Source: a virus
DNA length: 64,000 nt
Virus record (IMG/VR): IMGVR_UViG_3300045988_081755
Reading direction: 5' to 3' (one strand)
The position numbers and the translations under genes are program-made. Positions 32,789 to 64,000 of this stretch are shown one piece after another. Each line of letters starts with the position of its first letter. Within the stretch, counting starts at the first letter, position 1. The notes under the pieces are model-generated. The model was given only the letters and a program-made list of their open reading frames with translations. It ran no database searches and was not told the origin of the DNA.

Positions 32789-33207
32789 CAGACACTTCCT
32801 TAGTAGTAACTAAACACCAAAAGTAGAAATTCAGACTAAATCAAAATCTTTTGTCAAATCAAATGTAAATCAAGCCATAAAACAGACAGCTCGAGAACCG
32901 AACTGTACCATTATAACGGTATCGACTGGAAAAGGTTTTTCTCATTTCCTGTACCCCTAACGAATAAAGGCTGCGACAGCAGCCTCTCGAGGCGAAGCTC
33001 ATCGAAGATGGCGAAGCCTGTCAAAACACCGAACGTCAGTGAGGAGTGTTTCGAGGTCGAAAATGACATTCATAAATTTCCGTTCGGGACTCTATTTCTT
33101 TTCTCTATTTCTAACTATTTCAATAATACTCATATTTACCCCTGCGCGCGAGGCTCTCTTGTCCTACGGATGTCTATCGGGATTTTCGAGCCACAATTTC
33201 CCGAAAT

Positions 33208-33318
33208 AAAAAGGGGGGTTTATACGCTCAATAAAAGGGGGTCTAAAGCGCATTTAAGGGGGTCTGTACGCTAATAAAGGGGGGTTTATACGCTCGAAAT
33301 GCATACGTCTGTACGCTG
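33208..33318 (+). repeat. iteron array (4 full + 1 partial direct repeats, ~21-22 bp period)
   Basis: AAAAAGGGGGGTTTATACGCTC (33208), ATAAAAGGGGGTCTAAAGCGC (33231), ATTTAAGGGGGTCTGTACGCT (33252), AATAAAGGGGGGTTTATACGCTC (33273), and a partial GCATACGTCTGTACGCTG (33301). Lies about 100 nt upstream of the Rep_3-like gene. Confidence 0.85.
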
Positions 33319-33423: not shown

Positions 33424-34170
33424 ATGAGAAAAGATGTAATACAATGTTCGAAAAGAGTCAGCGAAGATACTCCTGACTACTCATGTTGGCAAATGCGCTG
33501 TCTGTGCTTAGTTGCCGACCAGCTCCAGCCTTTATTAAAGGAAGATATTGATTGGGCAAATACAAAGTTTGAAAACCTCGAAAAGTACGGTATCTTTAAC
33601 GATGACCATGAAGTTGAAATCACGATGAAACTTTCCGACATCGACAAGAACCGAAACGGAATTCGGGTTCTCAATGAGATTAAAAAGATGTTCGATATTC
33701 CCATTACATGGGATTGGATGAAAAACGGTAAAGCCACACGAACTGTCTTTTACTTTATCCATCGAATGGAATGGAATGAAGATAACCTGTTTTCTATTTA
33801 TCTGTCCCATTTCAGCGTTCGATGGATTCTTGAGTTCGGGAAGCGACAGGGGTTCTTATCGTTTGACAAACCGTCAATGATGATGCTCTCTTCTTCCTAC
33901 TCTATGCGCCTCTTTTTGATGTTGAGTCAATGGTACTCTAAGAAAGAGTTTTCTCTCGGTGTAGAGGAACTTGAGAGACGTCTGTGTTGTCCTAAATACA
34001 CCCCCAAAGATTTACGTGTACAGGTGCTTGAACCTATAAGAAGAGAGTTAAATAGCAAGGACTGCCGTCTTTCTTTTGAATATAAGTTCGTGTCAAACGA
34101 CAGAAAGAAAGGAGTTGGTCGAAAACGTTTTGATACTGTGGTGTTCACTATAATTGACAAAGAGAAATAA
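33424..34170 (+). CDS. iteron-type replication initiator, Rep_3-like
   Basis: 248 aa. SSSYSMRLFLMLSQWYSKKEFSLGVEELERRLCCPKYTPKDLRVQVLEPIRRELN matches the conserved second winged-helix region of Rep_3 initiators (S-x-Y-x-x-R-L-Y-E-L-L...V-L-x-P-x-x-x-E-I-N). Iterons lie directly upstream. Confidence 0.75.
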   Translation: MRKDVIQCSKRVSEDTPDYSCWQMRCLCLVADQLQPLLKEDIDWANTKFENLEKYGIFNDDHEVEITMKLSDIDKNRNGIRVLNEIKKMFDIPITWDWMKNGKATRTVFYFIHRMEWNEDNLFSIYLSHFSVRWILEFGKRQGFLSFDKPSMMMLSSSYSMRLFLMLSQWYSKKEFSLGVEELERRLCCPKYTPKDLRVQVLEPIRRELNSKDCRLSFEYKFVSNDRKKGVGRKRFDTVVFTIIDKEK

Positions 34171-35893: not shown

Positions 35894-35926
35894 GAGCACT
35901 TCTTTCAGGAGTGCTCTTTGTTTTTC
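35894..35926 (+). terminator. terminator of the rep-peptidase operon
   Basis: GAGCACT-tctttcagg-AGTGCTC followed by TTTGTTTTTC. Confidence 0.65.
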
Positions 35927-35943
35927 TTCGAAAATCAAGAAGG

Positions 35944-35961
35944 AGTCTCCCTGTCGCAAGC
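35944..35961 (+). repeat. crossover-site copy A (18-nt core AGTCTCCCTGTCGCAAGC)
   Basis: Identical to 37993-38010 and to the reverse complement of 36628-36645 except for one base. Confidence 0.7.
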
Positions 35962-36259
35962 TGGCGTTCCCTACGCAATTTCCGGTACAACTATCAACAT
36001 CACTGGATATGGTTCAGGCAAAGGAACTGTTAGCGTAACAGCTCCAGCAGGGGGTTCTTGGAGTATTGACTTCGCAAGCAATGCTTTCAGCCTTACTGCT
36101 TCGCCATCATCGGGTACTGGTCCGAACAGTTCCGTCACTATCAATGCTATCAATGATTCTGGTCAAACAGGTATTCACAGAATTAATATCTATCTTAAAA
36201 ACGGCTCAACGGTTGTTGATACAGCAACCGTTCAAGTTCGTATAACTTCTCAAGGATGA
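35944..36259 (+). other. silent alternative C-terminal cassette A for gene 36303..37391
   Basis: No ATG; the track ORF starts at a TTG inside the terminator T-run at 35918. Begins with an 18-nt core identical to the crossover site, in the same codon phase (GVSLSQAGV). Ends at the palindromic terminator 36272-36293. Confidence 0.6.
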
Positions 36260-36302: not shown

Positions 36303-37391
36303 TTATGGTGTGATAGTTTGGTTTTCAGCTTTAAGAGTGAAAGTTGAAAAGTACCTAGAGTCGAATATATTTTGGCCACCCCGCTGAATGCGTACTGTAA
36401 TAGTGTCACCAGCTTTGGCTTGAACAGTTTCCATCCTGCTTCCTGGTTTACAAACTGTCAATCCGTTTGTATTATTCCACATAATTGAGGCATTTTCATA
36501 CCCAGAACCCATAGAATAATAATCATTTGGACCATACAATGGAATACCCGTTGAATTAAATAGATAAGCGGTTGCTCCTGTATAATTACGGAACTTAATT
36601 GTTAGGGTAAATCGGGAAACGACGGCTGCTTGCAACAGGGAGACTGCTTGGGTCTTACCACTACCAGTCTGCGTATAGGAAACAGAACCGCCTCTCGAAC
36701 CGCTTTGATTGGACGCAGCCGTAATAGATGTTCCATCCGTGTTCTTGCTGAACCCTGTTCCGCTAATCGTAGCCGTCCATGCAACATTTTCCTGGGTCGA
36801 TGTTTCGACTCCGTTTATAACTTTCTTTCGGTAGGAAATTACGGTAACGGATTTCGTTCCACCACCAGCGACGAAACTGAGCGATGTCGGAGTCACGGAG
36901 AAGTAATAGTTCCAAGTTACTACTCCCGCAGCCTGACTCAATGAAATAGAAGCTGTTTTCCCACTTGTCCCCTGTGTATAGGAAACAGAACCGCTTCTCG
37001 AACCGCTTTGATTGGACGCAGCCGTAATAGATGTTCCATCCGTGTTCTTGCTGAACCCTGTTCCGCTAATCGTAGCCGTCCATGCAACATTTTCCTGGGT
37101 CGATGTTTCGACTCCGTTTATAACTTTCTTTCGGTAGGAAATTACGGTAACGGATTTCGTTCCACCACCAGCGACGAAACTGAGCGATGTCGGAGTCACG
37201 GAGAAGTAATAGTTCCAAGTTACTACTCCCGCAGCCTGACTTGCGCCAACAGTACGTGTCATCCCGCCACCAGCGACTGAAAGGCTCGTACTGCGTGTGG
37301 ATTCTGTCTGGTTAGCAGACGCTGCGACAGTCACAGTTGTGCTACCACTTCCTCCGGAGTCCGGAGTTGCTGTAATAAAATCTTTCTTCAT
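36303..37391 (-). CDS. BACON/Ig-like repeat protein with switchable C-terminal domain (expressed locus)
   Basis: 362 aa. N-terminus MKKDFITATPDSGGSGSTTVTV, two near-identical 101-aa repeats, then ...GKTQAVSLLQAAVV followed by a ~105-aa unique C-terminal domain. Promoter TAAATTTG at 37431-37438. Confidence 0.8.
   Translation of the reverse strand: MKKDFITATPDSGGSGSTTVTVAASANQTESTRSTSLSVAGGGMTRTVGASQAAGVVTWNYYFSVTPTSLSFVAGGGTKSVTVISYRKKVINGVETSTQENVAWTATISGTGFSKNTDGTSITAASNQSGSRSGSVSYTQGTSGKTASISLSQAAGVVTWNYYFSVTPTSLSFVAGGGTKSVTVISYRKKVINGVETSTQENVAWTATISGTGFSKNTDGTSITAASNQSGSRGGSVSYTQTGSGKTQAVSLLQAAVVSRFTLTIKFRNYTGATAYLFNSTGIPLYGPNDYYSMGSGYENASIMWNNTNGLTVCKPGSRMETVQAKAGDTITVRIQRGGQNIFDSRYFSTFTLKAENQTITP
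36619..36654 (-). repeat. crossover site inside the expressed gene
   Basis: Minus strand reads GACCCAAGCAGTCTCCCTGTTGCAAGCAGCCGTCGT, which matches 37984-38019 on the plus strand at 34 of 36 positions. Confidence 0.7.
36669..37241 (-). repeat. 303-bp in-frame tandem duplication inside gene 36303..37391
   Basis: 36669-36938 and 36972-37241 are identical except for 2 mismatches (offset 303 nt = 101 aa). The ~33-bp junctions between the copies diverge. Confidence 0.9.
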
Positions 37392-37899: not shown

Positions 37900-37983
37900 G
37901 TCTTCATTCTTTTATATGTAAAACGTTCTTTTTCCGACAATCAATTGATTTTACGCCAGAATCTTCCTTATTCATTTAAAATA

Positions 37984-38019
37984 GAGCCAAGCAGTCTCCC
38001 TGTCGCAAGCAGCCGTCGT
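37984..38019 (+). repeat. crossover-site copy C
   Basis: GAGCCAAGCAGTCTCCCTGTCGCAAGCAGCCGTCGT, an inverted repeat of 36619-36654. Sequence on both sides is unrelated. Confidence 0.7.
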
Positions 38020-38380
38020 AATAACCTATAAATATAGAATTGCACCTGAATTGATTACAGTTTCTAATTCGCAACATGGTTCTGTGACGAAAACTGTTCT
38101 GATGTATAAAGAGCGTTATGTGAATGGGGTTAAAGATGGTGAAGAGCAAATTGAATACTCTTTACTTGACCAAAATGGAAGTTATTCCCCTGTTCCTTCT
38201 ACCACATACACAAATGTTTGGGGAGGAACTTGGACAATTGAAAAGACAGGGAATTCTTTAAGGGTAACGACAATTTCAGGAGGAAGCAATTCTTCTGGTG
38301 GAATCACTGGTGTGAAATTAATGCCTGGAACCAGTTATGCTGGGACAATAAATACCGATTTAAATTTGGGTCGTCCATAA
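37985..38380 (+). other. silent alternative C-terminal cassette C for gene 36303..37391
   Basis: The frame is open from the TAG at 37982-37984. There is no ATG (track start is the TTG at 38051). Begins SQAVSLSQAAVV, encoded by a 36-nt inverted copy of 36619-36654. Followed by hairpin 38393-38417. Confidence 0.6.
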
Positions 38381-39356: not shown

Positions 39357-39383
39357 GACTATCGATGTTTAAATTTGACAGTA

Positions 39384-39438
39384 CAAAGATAGTGGAAAGA
39401 AATGAGACTGCAAAGAAAATCCCGGAATTTCTTCCGGG
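39384..39438 (-). promoter_or_regulatory. terminator hairpin + promoter cassette
   Basis: Hairpin CCCGGAA-gaaa-TTCCGGG (39421-39438), TTTG (39411-39414), 19-nt spacer, TATCTTTG (39384-39391). 45 bp (39406-39450) are identical to 44082-44126. Confidence 0.7.
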
Positions 39439-39460
39439 AAATCTTTGAGAGGATTGATTT

Positions 39461-40128
39461 TTATGTGAAATCGAACTCGGCTACACAAACATATTCTCCC
39501 TGATACTGAGGGTCTCCAAGATATAATCGAATGTACTGAAGAGCGTGTGAAGCGGGAGTGAATTGCTTTCCGGCAGACATTCTAAAATAATGTGCAGTAA
39601 AGCCAGGAATTCCAGGGTTCTCGGGGTCACTTTGAACTTTGTCATAATATGACTTGGTTCCAGCTCCAGGAATATCTTTATACAAAGTTTCCATGTAAAC
39701 GCCATTATTAAATGGCTCCTCCCATATATTTTCGATACTGTCTGAAAGCAATAACGCTCCTCTTGTTACCCAATAAGTATCGGACATTTCAGACACGGAA
39801 GGAATCTGTGCATTCATTTTAACTGAAAGATATGAAACTTCTCTTTCGTAACCATTGTCGTTTATTTCTGACTTTACAGAAAAACCCGTTGCGTTGAACG
39901 AAAAAGTAACATTTCCATTCCATTTATCAGCAATTGAAGTTAAACCCACAACGGGCATGAGCGGAATTCCGTTTTGGTCAACGGTTACAAGGCGAGATAC
40001 CCCCCCCAGCGGAGAAGTTCAAAGTTGTGGAGCGAGCAGAAAAGGTTGGATTTGGGTCAGCAGATACGCTTACTTGAGCCGTACCCCCCCCCCGAATCGG
40101 GAGTGATTGTAAGAAAATCTTTTTTCAT
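39461..40128 (-). CDS. BACON-like paralog interrupted by two poly-G tracts (phase-variable candidate, out of frame as assembled)
   Basis: The ATG at 40128 gives MKKDFLTITPDSGGG, then a stop. With G9 instead of G10 the frame reads GTAQVSVSADPNPTFSARSTTLNFSAGGG. With G7 instead of G8 at the second tract it joins track ORF 39461..39958. Confidence 0.6.
40010..40017 (-). repeat. poly-G tract (G8 on coding strand), second tract of gene 39461..40128
   Basis: Run of 8 C on the plus strand. In-frame lengths would be 7 or 10. Confidence 0.95.
40084..40093 (-). repeat. poly-G tract (G10 on coding strand), codons 12-15 of gene 39461..40128
   Basis: Run of 10 C on the plus strand. In-frame lengths would be 9, 6 or 12. 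Confidence 0.95.
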
Positions 40129-40140
40129 GATTCTTTAATT
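40086..40140 (-). repeat. 55-nt identical 5' end shared with 63946-64000
   Basis: CCCCCCCCGAATCGGGAGTGATTGTAAGAAAATCTTTTTTCATGATTCTTTAATT occurs at both loci. It covers 12 nt upstream of the ATG, codons 1-12 and the start of the G tract. Identity ends at the tract. Confidence 0.95.
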
Positions 40141-40254
40141 TTAAATTCAACGAAATTATTTATGCTATTGACGTCAATTATAGCCGATTTAAGAGGTTAA
40201 AAGTATGCCCCGAACAAATTATCCGGAGCACACCTTTGATTATCGCTTAGAGCC

Positions 40255-43784: not shown

Positions 43785-44024
43785 TTAGAACTCCACGAAT
43801 ATTAATCTAAATTTGCTTCCAGGTTCGCAAACCCACATATGGGATGAACCAAACCCGAAGGAGAAATAACGGTTCAAAGATGGGTGGCGTTCCTGAAGAA
43901 TTTTCATACAGTAACGAAGTCCGTCTTCTGTTTCAGAAGAAGTGATGTTGTTTAGGATTTCAGCGAAAATTTCAACTGATTTACTTTCCATGTTTAGGAG
44001 AACTGATTCAACTGTTGCTTTCAT
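43785..44024 (-). CDS. hypothetical protein
   Basis: 79-aa ORF with a promoter cassette at 44060-44114. Confidence 0.6.
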   Translation of the reverse strand: MKATVESVLLNMESKSVEIFAEILNNITSSETEDGLRYCMKILQERHPSLNRYFSFGFGSSHMWVCEPGSKFRLIFVEF

Positions 44025-44059
44025 GACTTTACTGTTTTTTTTTTAATTGATTTACACAA

Positions 44060-44114
44060 CAAAGGTAATGGATTCTCAGAAGACTGCAAAGAAAATCCCG
44101 GAATTTCTTCCGGG
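44060..44114 (-). promoter_or_regulatory. terminator hairpin + promoter cassette
   Basis: Same hairpin (44097-44114), TTTG (44087-44090), 19-nt spacer, TACCTTTG (44060-44067), ATG at 44024. Confidence 0.7.
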
Positions 44115-44156
44115 AAATCTTTGAGAATGTCTAAAATTAGTTCCCTTATAATACGT

Positions 44157-51059: not shown

Positions 51060-51088
51060 AACCAAATGATTTAAATTGTTTGACGGAA

Positions 51089-63454: not shown

Positions 63455-63988
63455 TTAATTATACAAATGAAAAGTTCCAGTTGCGGAACCACCTGCTCCC
63501 ATATATTCAACCTTTATATCGTAATAACAAGAAACTGAAGACGGTGCTCCAGATTTCTTTGCAAACTGAACCCGAGTCCCATATTGGCTGGTATTAGTGA
63601 CATCATAATACGAAGTATTCGTAGGAGTAACTGTCACCCGTGTATTTCCATCTTTGCTGAAATCTTCTGATATCAGAGTATCTCCTTCATAAACAGCTTT
63701 TCGCAAACGAAATTCTGGTGTGACGAATGGGGCTGCGAAATTTGCCTCAATAGTCCCAGAAGGAGTTATCCACCCTTTACTTGTCCCAGCGAAGCTGTCA
63801 AAATTATATTGCAACTCAGTCACATATCTTCTTCCTGCGCTTTGAGCTACATTAATGGTTCGAGTGATACCCCCCCCTGAATGGTTATCGTAGAGGAACG
63901 AGCATTACCAGTGTTTGCGGGAACCGCAACGGTCACTTCCTGTGACCCCCCCCGAATCGGGAGTGATTGTAAGAAAATCTTTTTTCAT
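63455..63988 (-). CDS. BACON-like paralog interrupted by two poly-G tracts (phase-variable candidate, out of frame as assembled)
   Basis: The ATG at 63988 gives MKKDFLTITPDSGGV... and stops early. G7 or G10 at the first tract gives GSQEVTVAVPANTGNARSSTITIQGG. G6 or G9 at the second tract joins GGITRTINVAQSAGRRYV to track ORF 63455..63823, which starts at a GTG. Confidence 0.6.
63870..63877 (-). repeat. poly-G tract (G8), second tract of gene 63455..63988
   Basis: Run of 8 C on the plus strand. In-frame lengths would be 6 or 9. Confidence 0.95.
63946..63953 (-). repeat. poly-G tract (G8), first tract of gene 63455..63988
   Basis: Run of 8 C on the plus strand. In-frame lengths would be 7 or 10. 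Confidence 0.95.
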
Positions 63989-64000
63989 GATTCTTTAATT

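Follow-up and report, generated by a model that had tools for sequence, protein, structure and literature searches.

Hypermutable polyG tracts have been described in the receptor-binding-protein genes of Campylobacter phages (Fletchervirus; Sorensen et al. 2021, Cell Rep 35:109214, as cited in PMC12633550 and PMC12823448). As those two papers relate it, changes in tract length turn the genes ON or OFF and give rise to phenotypic sub-populations. Phase variation through polyG/C repeats is also a feature of the bacterial contingency loci of Campylobacter, Neisseria and Haemophilus (PMC4965091, PMC8355987). A recent preprint (Gomez, Barrick and Waters 2025, PMC12633550) claims contingency loci for T-even and other phages, where they are mostly short runs (6 or more nucleotides, often A/T) in all gene classes. 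Invertible tail-fibre segments, for which Gin of phage Mu and Cin of phage P1 are the examples cited in PMC12823448, provide another source of variation. The BACON domains of phages have been described as single, non-tandem and away from tail genes (de Jonge et al. 2019, PMC6949934), and this paper, the principal one on the subject, is silent on frameshifts and homopolymers.

We identified long G tracts in a family of BACON genes within a 64,000-nucleotide stretch of DNA (the window) from a gut phage. The initial annotation had proposed one of these genes, here called gene A, as a candidate contingency locus; it named the Campylobacter phages as a precedent and was aware of none from a Bacteroidota phage. 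That precedent is real, to the extent that the two citing papers describe it, and the literature that we searched yielded no report of polyG switching in Bacteroidota phages, gut phages included. PolyG length switching in phage genes is already known from Campylobacter phages. What is new here is the host group, the gene family, the presence of two tracts in one domain in many members, and a frame bias at the first tract (T1).

The tracts resemble those of Fletchervirus, as described in the citing papers, in lying within genes, in their length (about 7–11 nt) and in occurring several times per genome. However, there is no sequence relationship between the two systems, as the locus (megablast, blastn) and the protein with both tracts set in frame (tblastn) had no match among 50,697 GenBank phage records. 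The genes described here are small, encode a BACON and a variable domain, lie away from the tail module and are no homologues of the Campylobacter phage genes, so that any receptor-binding role would be putative; many family members carry two tracts inside one domain, and the probable host belongs to another phylum and itself has no known polyG switching. Phenotypic sub-populations are reported for Fletchervirus in those papers; for the BACON genes they are predicted from sequence. With bacterial contingency loci they share a homopolymer of at least 7 nt near the 5' end of the ORF, the existence of ON and OFF alleles, interrupted in-frame alleles, and an association with paralogous families of surface-interaction genes, a role that is putative here. 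The carrier, however, is a virus, and switching would occur per replication burst.

As in the T-even phages, homopolymers in phage genes would serve as reversible frameshift hot spots within a bet-hedging concept (PMC12633550), but the long G runs are restricted to two homologous positions in one gene family of a homopolymer-poor genome. Like the BACON proteins of crAss-like and other gut phages (PF13004/PF19190), those described here have a single BACON domain away from the tail genes and come from a Bacteroidota-associated gut phage, although one that has a contractile tail and is not crAss-like. Invertible tail-fibre segments and diversity-generating retroelements vary a binding protein within a phage population, which is also the apparent purpose here, but they do so by site-specific inversion or mutagenic retrohoming, whereas the BACON genes would rely on replication slippage.

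The window belongs to a scaffold of 109,310 bp that was assembled from a metagenome (ENA ERZ28628869, sample SAMN06164722), and close relatives of the phage are found in human gut and faecal metagenomes. The phage encodes a tail sheath, a major head protein and a portal. Its nearest cultured capsid relatives are the Bacteroides thetaiotaomicron phages DAC19/20/22 and a Chryseobacterium phage (33–35% identity), and intergenic cassettes of the window pair a terminator with a TAnnTTTG box, which we take to be the Bacteroides -7 promoter box. The capsid relatives and these cassettes point to a probable Bacteroidota host. When GTDB representative genomes were scanned for the pattern of 5' end and tract, none matched, which gave neither a prophage copy nor a direct host assignment. 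Elsewhere in the window, four iteron-like repeats (AAAAGGGGGGTTTATACGCTC and variants) lie at 33190-33310, just upstream of a gene (33424-34170, phrog_4402) that resembles replication initiators. As the repeats are located at a switch of coding strand and GC skew, this region is a candidate replication origin.

Gene A stands alone among small genes, and the closest structural gene is about 8 kb away. A PHROGs scan of gene A, its two-tract paralog (gene B) and their neighbours identified no family. The features of the gene A locus are as follows.

39461-40128, minus strand: gene A, encoding a BACON domain and a variable domain; ATG at 40128; both tracts out of frame as assembled
40084-40093, minus strand: T1, G10, codons 12-15, the Gly loop after the first BACON strand
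40000-40007, minus strand: second tract (T2), G8, the second Gly loop of the BACON domain
40057-40128, minus strand: frame as assembled, 23 codons and then TGA at 40059-40057
39461-39999, minus strand: open frame downstream of T2, encoding the end of the BACON domain and a beta-rich C-terminal domain; under purifying selection
40086-40140, minus strand: 55-nt 5' block, starting at -12 and ending inside T1, 100% identical to 63946-64000
40151-40158, minus strand: TAATTTCG, a near match to TAnnTTTG, within the block CATAAATAATTTCGTTGAA
39420-39439, minus strand: terminator-like hairpin and T run of intrinsic type, 22 nt after the gene A stop codon

The gene starts at 40128 on the minus strand with MKKDFLTITPDS, the same N-terminus as the gene at 36303-37391, and runs into G10 at codons 12-15, both as initially described. 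The second tract also exists, but it is located at 40000-40007 and not at 40010-40017, a slip of 10 nt, and the product of the gene as assembled (MKKDFLTITPDSGGGYGSSKRIC) has 23 codons rather than the 22 first counted. T2 begins 76 nt beyond T1, and both tracts fall within codons 12-44. T1 is in frame at G9 or G12 and T2 at G7 or G10; each tract as assembled has one extra nucleotide. When set to G9 and G7, gene A is a single 221-aa ORF that ends at 39461 and includes the listed 165-aa ORF (39461-39958), a continuation that had been anticipated. The BACON-like identity claimed for the gene is borne out by a match of the corrected protein to Pfam BACON (PF13004) at 37.7 bits (cut-off 25), which spans residues 3-51 and crosses both tracts. 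The domain is complete only if both frameshifts are corrected, and the as-assembled fragments of gene A and gene B cannot reach the cut-off on their own. An AlphaFold model of an in-frame ortholog (P0001, 32-sequence alignment) has a mean pLDDT of 59.5 with the N-terminal 55 residues below 50, and a Foldseek search of this poor model against the PDB found nothing below E = 0.04. Orthologs of both gene A and gene B are preceded by the conserved block CATAAATAATTTCGTTGAA, and we infer from its sequence that TAATTTCG is a putative promoter.

The window contains a second two-tract gene and a paralog in which the tracts are absent.

63455-63988, minus strand: gene B, ATG at 63988 and stop at 63455; two-tract paralog, OFF at both tracts as assembled
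63946-63953, minus strand: gene B tract 1, G8; in frame at G7 or G10
63870-63877, minus strand: gene B tract 2, G8; in frame at G9
36303-37391, minus strand: intact paralog with the N-terminus of gene A and no homopolymers; highly conserved in relatives

Set to G7 and G9, gene B encodes 177 aa and scores 31.7 bits against the BACON model. With scores of 37.7 and 31.7 bits across both tracts in two genes, the corrected frame is the real frame. Gene B lies at the extreme edge of the window (63455-64000), and its promoter is cut by the window end.

Long G tracts are rare in the window. The 64-kb window contains four G/C runs of at least 8 nt, compared with 0.67 expected from base composition (0.04 for runs of at least 10 nt), and even among runs of at least 7 nt there are only these four, the T1 and T2 of gene A and gene B. 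GGG makes up 15.5% of the Gly codons in the 21 other ORFs of the window, and the spelling GGGGGG is used for none of the 82 Gly-Gly dipeptides in other ORFs. The tract homopolymers therefore represent a maintained codon choice. The initial annotation had also argued for codon choice from the intact paralog, which starts MKKDFITATPDSGG and indeed writes the glycines of the tract positions as GGAGGAAGTGGT and GGTGGCGGG. Across about 510 kb of related loci there are 102 G/C runs of at least 7 nt, 89 of which are at the T1/T2 positions by pattern search, and the remaining 13 mostly belong to paralogs whose N-termini are variant, where they again form T1 or T2.

Runs of exactly 7 nt of any base are absent from the whole window, and there are only 5 A6 runs and 7 T6 runs where about 15 and 36 are expected from base composition. 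This depletion may reflect selection against slippage, and the long G tracts are sharply distinct from the homopolymer-poor background. Two relatives have a G10 in another, non-BACON context, where it follows GAAACAGCTATCAGGCAGCAGTTCA (L015, position 1025; L030, position 12765); the window lacks this sequence. At 44035-44044, a minus-strand run of A10 occupies the 5' leader between a TAnnTTTG-type box and an ATG at 44024. The same position is A5 in relative L003, and the run may be a second kind of variable tract, one acting on expression.

Relatives were gathered by scanning IMG/VR and public metagenomes for the conserved 5' end and by exact-protein look-ups, which together yielded about 60 related loci, most of them from human-gut samples in SPAdes or Logan assemblies. 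Several of these contigs have 2-6x coverage, at which single length calls may be wrong. Tract lengths range from G6 to G12 over the loci, and over 67 non-redundant genes T1 spans G7-G12 and T2 G6-G11. The lengths at T1 and T2 in the lineages of gene A and gene B are listed below.

Gene A lineage, window: T1 10, T2 8
Gene A lineage, L058 (Logan SRR5156033): T1 8, T2 8; 0 mismatches in 760 nt against the window
Gene A lineage, L059: T1 10, T2 10
Gene A lineage, L029: T1 10, T2 9
Gene A lineage, L049: T1 9, T2 10; both tracts in frame
Gene A lineage, L030: T1 11, T2 10
Gene B ortholog L060: T1 7, T2 7
Gene B ortholog L061: T1 8, T2 8
Gene B ortholog L062: T1 8, T2 8
Gene B ortholog L063: T1 7, T2 7
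Gene B ortholog L064: T1 10, T2 8
Gene B ortholog L065: T1 10, T2 7

The tracts change while the surrounding DNA does not. All gene B orthologs from L060 to L065 have an identical 122-aa C-terminal ORF, and five of them (L060 and L062-L065, at least 99.5% mutual identity) differ by 0-6 mismatches in 0.9-3.5 kb. L060 and L064 have no mismatch in 2013 nt, but their T1 differs by 3 nt and their T2 by 1 nt. Among contigs that are at least 99.5% identical, nearly all indels are within the G tracts and 3-nt tract differences are common; the few other indels are in short A/T runs, plus one 5-nt indel. The G10 and G8 at T1 in two otherwise identical assemblies, the window and L058, would hint at heterogeneity within one population if both derive from the same sample. 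Both tracts are in frame in 2 of 24 two-tract genes, the single tract is in frame in 11 of 43 one-tract genes, and frame states over the 67 genes are close to random.

Full-length alleles are also common at the protein level. A search of a 5.8-billion-protein collection with corrected gene A gave 210 matches. The best 120 cluster representatives of these comprise 54 proteins of 218-223 aa with a BACON domain, 15 that start at or beyond T1, and 50 that are a C-terminal-only 165-aa fragment beginning 'MPVVGLTS'; these are counts of representatives only, and the 90%-identity clusters can mix full-length and truncated forms. Gene callers report the 165-aa fragment if the frame is broken at T2. Among the full-length alleles the differences are whole glycines, with GG, GGG or GGGG at T1 and GG or GGG at T2. 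Others are in frame with a tract interrupted by point changes (GGRG, GEG, GERG, GGEG, SAGGR and SAGER), an example at the DNA level being GGGGAGGGG in L022. The broken run in these alleles should reduce slippage.

The sequence downstream of the tracts remains under selection. In divergent pairs dN/dS of the gene A C-terminal domain is 0.06-0.17, although most of these alleles are OFF in the consensus, which rules out simple pseudogene decay. The downstream ORFs are intact and of family-typical length in nearly all 67 genes, with truncated alleles in L032 and L035. Between closely related pairs, dN/dS of the C-terminal domain is raised (0.36-0.75). Amino-acid variation among orthologs falls in patches within about 39760-39950 (LTSLxDxWNGxV, STxSxQNxNGYExG and SVSExxDTYW), which may be diversifying binding loops.

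The family thus shows a slip-prone tract of at least 7 nt inside an ORF, a tract length more variable than its surroundings, and both ON and OFF alleles of an otherwise intact ORF under selection. Apart from the 10-nt coordinate slip, the sequence-level claims of the initial annotation held. Given the varying tract lengths in relatives, the in-frame alleles, the full-length proteins and the purifying selection, the contingency-locus reading is supported, and we consider it likely (probability roughly 0.75) that these BACON genes form a slipped-strand contingency-locus family of which the window holds an OFF/OFF state. Gene A would then be one member of a multigene family in a contractile-tailed human-gut phage of about 109 kb with a probable Bacteroidota host. 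Each member would fuse an N-terminal BACON domain to a variable beta-rich C-terminal domain, with one or two BACON Gly loops spelled as homopolymeric G tracts. Slipped-strand mispairing during phage DNA replication would alter tract length, presumably reversibly and with heterogeneity within one population, and the Gly loops would tolerate whole-codon length changes. With both tracts of gene A and of gene B one step out of frame, both genes would be OFF in the consensus. Since each tract sets the frame independently, about 1 in 9 length combinations would give the full two-tract protein. Several such paralogs per genome would produce combinatorial heterogeneity of BACON-plus-variable-domain proteins, and a phage population would hedge its bets by containing sub-populations that each express their own subset of these putative surface- or glycan-binding proteins.

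Some observations count against the contingency reading. The mostly OFF consensus and the near-random frame states are also expected under relaxed selection. Gene A is dispensable, as it is lost in L004 (4460-4530) by a deletion between two copies of TCACTCCCG, a 9-bp microhomology. The P0072 allele lacks the segment between T1 and T2, apparently through recombination between its two G tracts. The T1 bias toward the '+1' frame is also not predicted by simple neutral switching. Over the 67 genes, T1 is in frame in 15, carries one extra nucleotide ('+1') in 41 and is '-1' in 11 (chi-square p = 7e-6; a conservative count of 12/23/10 gives p = 0.04), in samples that are not phylogenetically independent. 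The states of T2 are uniform (9 in frame, 7 '+1' and 8 '-1'). We considered a systematic '+1 G' sequencing artefact as the source of the T1 bias and rejected it, because T2 tracts of equal length show no bias.

One explanation of this bias is that the '+1' state of T1 is still expressed, so that recoding would replace or add to DNA switching and tune the amount or isoform of the protein. Expression could come about by +1 ribosomal slippage on rare GGG codons, by slippage of RNA polymerase on the G run or from an alternative start codon. Besides the contrast between T1 and T2, recoding is favoured by G7 and G10, which share a frame at T1 and both occur on alleles only 1-2 mismatches apart in 700 nt, by the conservation of the N-terminal peptide in frame 0, and by the minority status of GGG. 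In addition, the '+1' state of the 'DN' lineage creates an in-frame ATG (GAC AAT followed by G12 and read A-ATG-GGG in L056), which accounts for the 'MGGGGTTQV' proteins of 209-212 aa that are common in the protein database. However, in the lineage of the window the +1 frame offers only ATT-CGG and no canonical start. No stable RNA structure forms in the 94 nt after T1 (-17.4 kcal/mol compared with a shuffle mean of -21.3, z = +1.38), although +1 shifts do not require a downstream stimulatory structure, and the window yielded no tRNA gene. For slippage by RNA polymerase, G7 is a short run. Moreover, tract lengths of 6-12 and the existence of in-frame and '-1' alleles differ from the fixed out-of-frame arrangement of classical recoding sites and of programmed frameshifting or slippage. 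We therefore regard recoding as unlikely. A tentative variant, to which we give a minor share of belief, is that T1 is a three-state device, with the full protein in frame, a second output in the '+1' state and a null third frame. The second output could be an isoform with a shortened N-terminus from a start at the tract edge (the ATG in the 'DN' lineage), or alternatively a small amount of full-length protein, if the ribosome (+1) or RNA polymerase slips on the rare GGG codons.

An assembly or sequencing error, in which the true phage has G9 and G7 and these were miscalled as G10 and G8, is quite improbable. Illumina reads become more prone to indel errors once a G run reaches 8, many of the related contigs have only 2-6x coverage, and T1 is mostly exactly one G too long. 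The disagreement at T1 between L058 and the window also means that at least one of the two calls is a sub-population or an error. However, the alternative assembly L058 is itself out of frame (G8/G8), the '+1' bias is absent from T2, and few other indels separate near-identical contigs. Lengths of 6-12 recur over dozens of independent assemblies made with different assemblers, with 3-nt differences common, and the interrupted and whole-codon protein variants are not error-like. A single wrong call would still leave a hypervariable tract. For the BACON family as a whole, assembly error was rejected as the cause, as it cannot account for family-wide length variation.

That gene A is instead a decaying pseudogene, a dispensable gene in which disabling frameshifts were fixed at mutation-prone sites, would suit the mostly OFF consensus alleles at near-random frequencies, the microhomology deletion in L004, the P0072 allele and the few truncated alleles, but it is highly improbable, because the gene A family shows neither an accumulation of further disabling mutations nor dN/dS near 1, its downstream ORFs are intact in nearly all members, both tracts are in frame in many alleles, divergent paralogs retain the homopolymers at the same two positions against the codon preference of the genome, and the N-terminal 11 codons are conserved as protein while their synonymous sites vary.

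The tracts also coincide with joints between paralogs. Gene A and gene B share the identical 55-nt 5' block, and the gene B orthologs in seven other samples have another 5' end joined at the same G tract, which points to a recombination or gene-conversion joint at the tract. A C-terminal domain of the gene A type occupies a different genomic slot in L056. From these arrangements, the G tracts and their conserved flanks appear to be cassette-exchange joints at which paralogs trade 5' ends and C-terminal cassettes. Terminator-plus-promoter cassettes recur between small genes of the window (39375-39450 and 44051-44126, and also at 51079, 53843, 56135, 56722, 61627, 55257 and 60948), and they could be conserved 3' flanks that mediate BACON gene exchange.

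The intact paralog contains a 37-nt site (36619-36655) that is an inverted repeat of two other sites, 95% and 86% complementary. These partner sites, 37983-38019 and 35940-35967, lie at the 5' ends of two plus-strand ORFs, 38051-38380 and 35918-36259, the latter of which matches BACON_2. The arrangement looks like a shufflon-type invertible system for swapping C-terminal cassettes, and, if real, it would be a second diversification mechanism acting on the BACON gene family.

The dynamics between gut phages and their Bacteroidota hosts are usually attributed to variation in the host, for example to capsules switched by invertible promoters, and diversity-generating retroelements are known diversifiers on the phage side. 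BACON-domain proteins have been proposed to bind glycans or mucus. If the contingency-locus reading is true, a whole BACON family would be under a cheap, replication-driven, phage-side switch in a lineage present in many human gut metagenomes. It would also account for the routine mis-annotation of these genes as 165-aa fragments, and homopolymer frameshifts in gut phage assemblies would be a warning against polishing them away. Sub-populations with the genes ON or OFF would offer a testable handle on the role of BACON proteins in phages.
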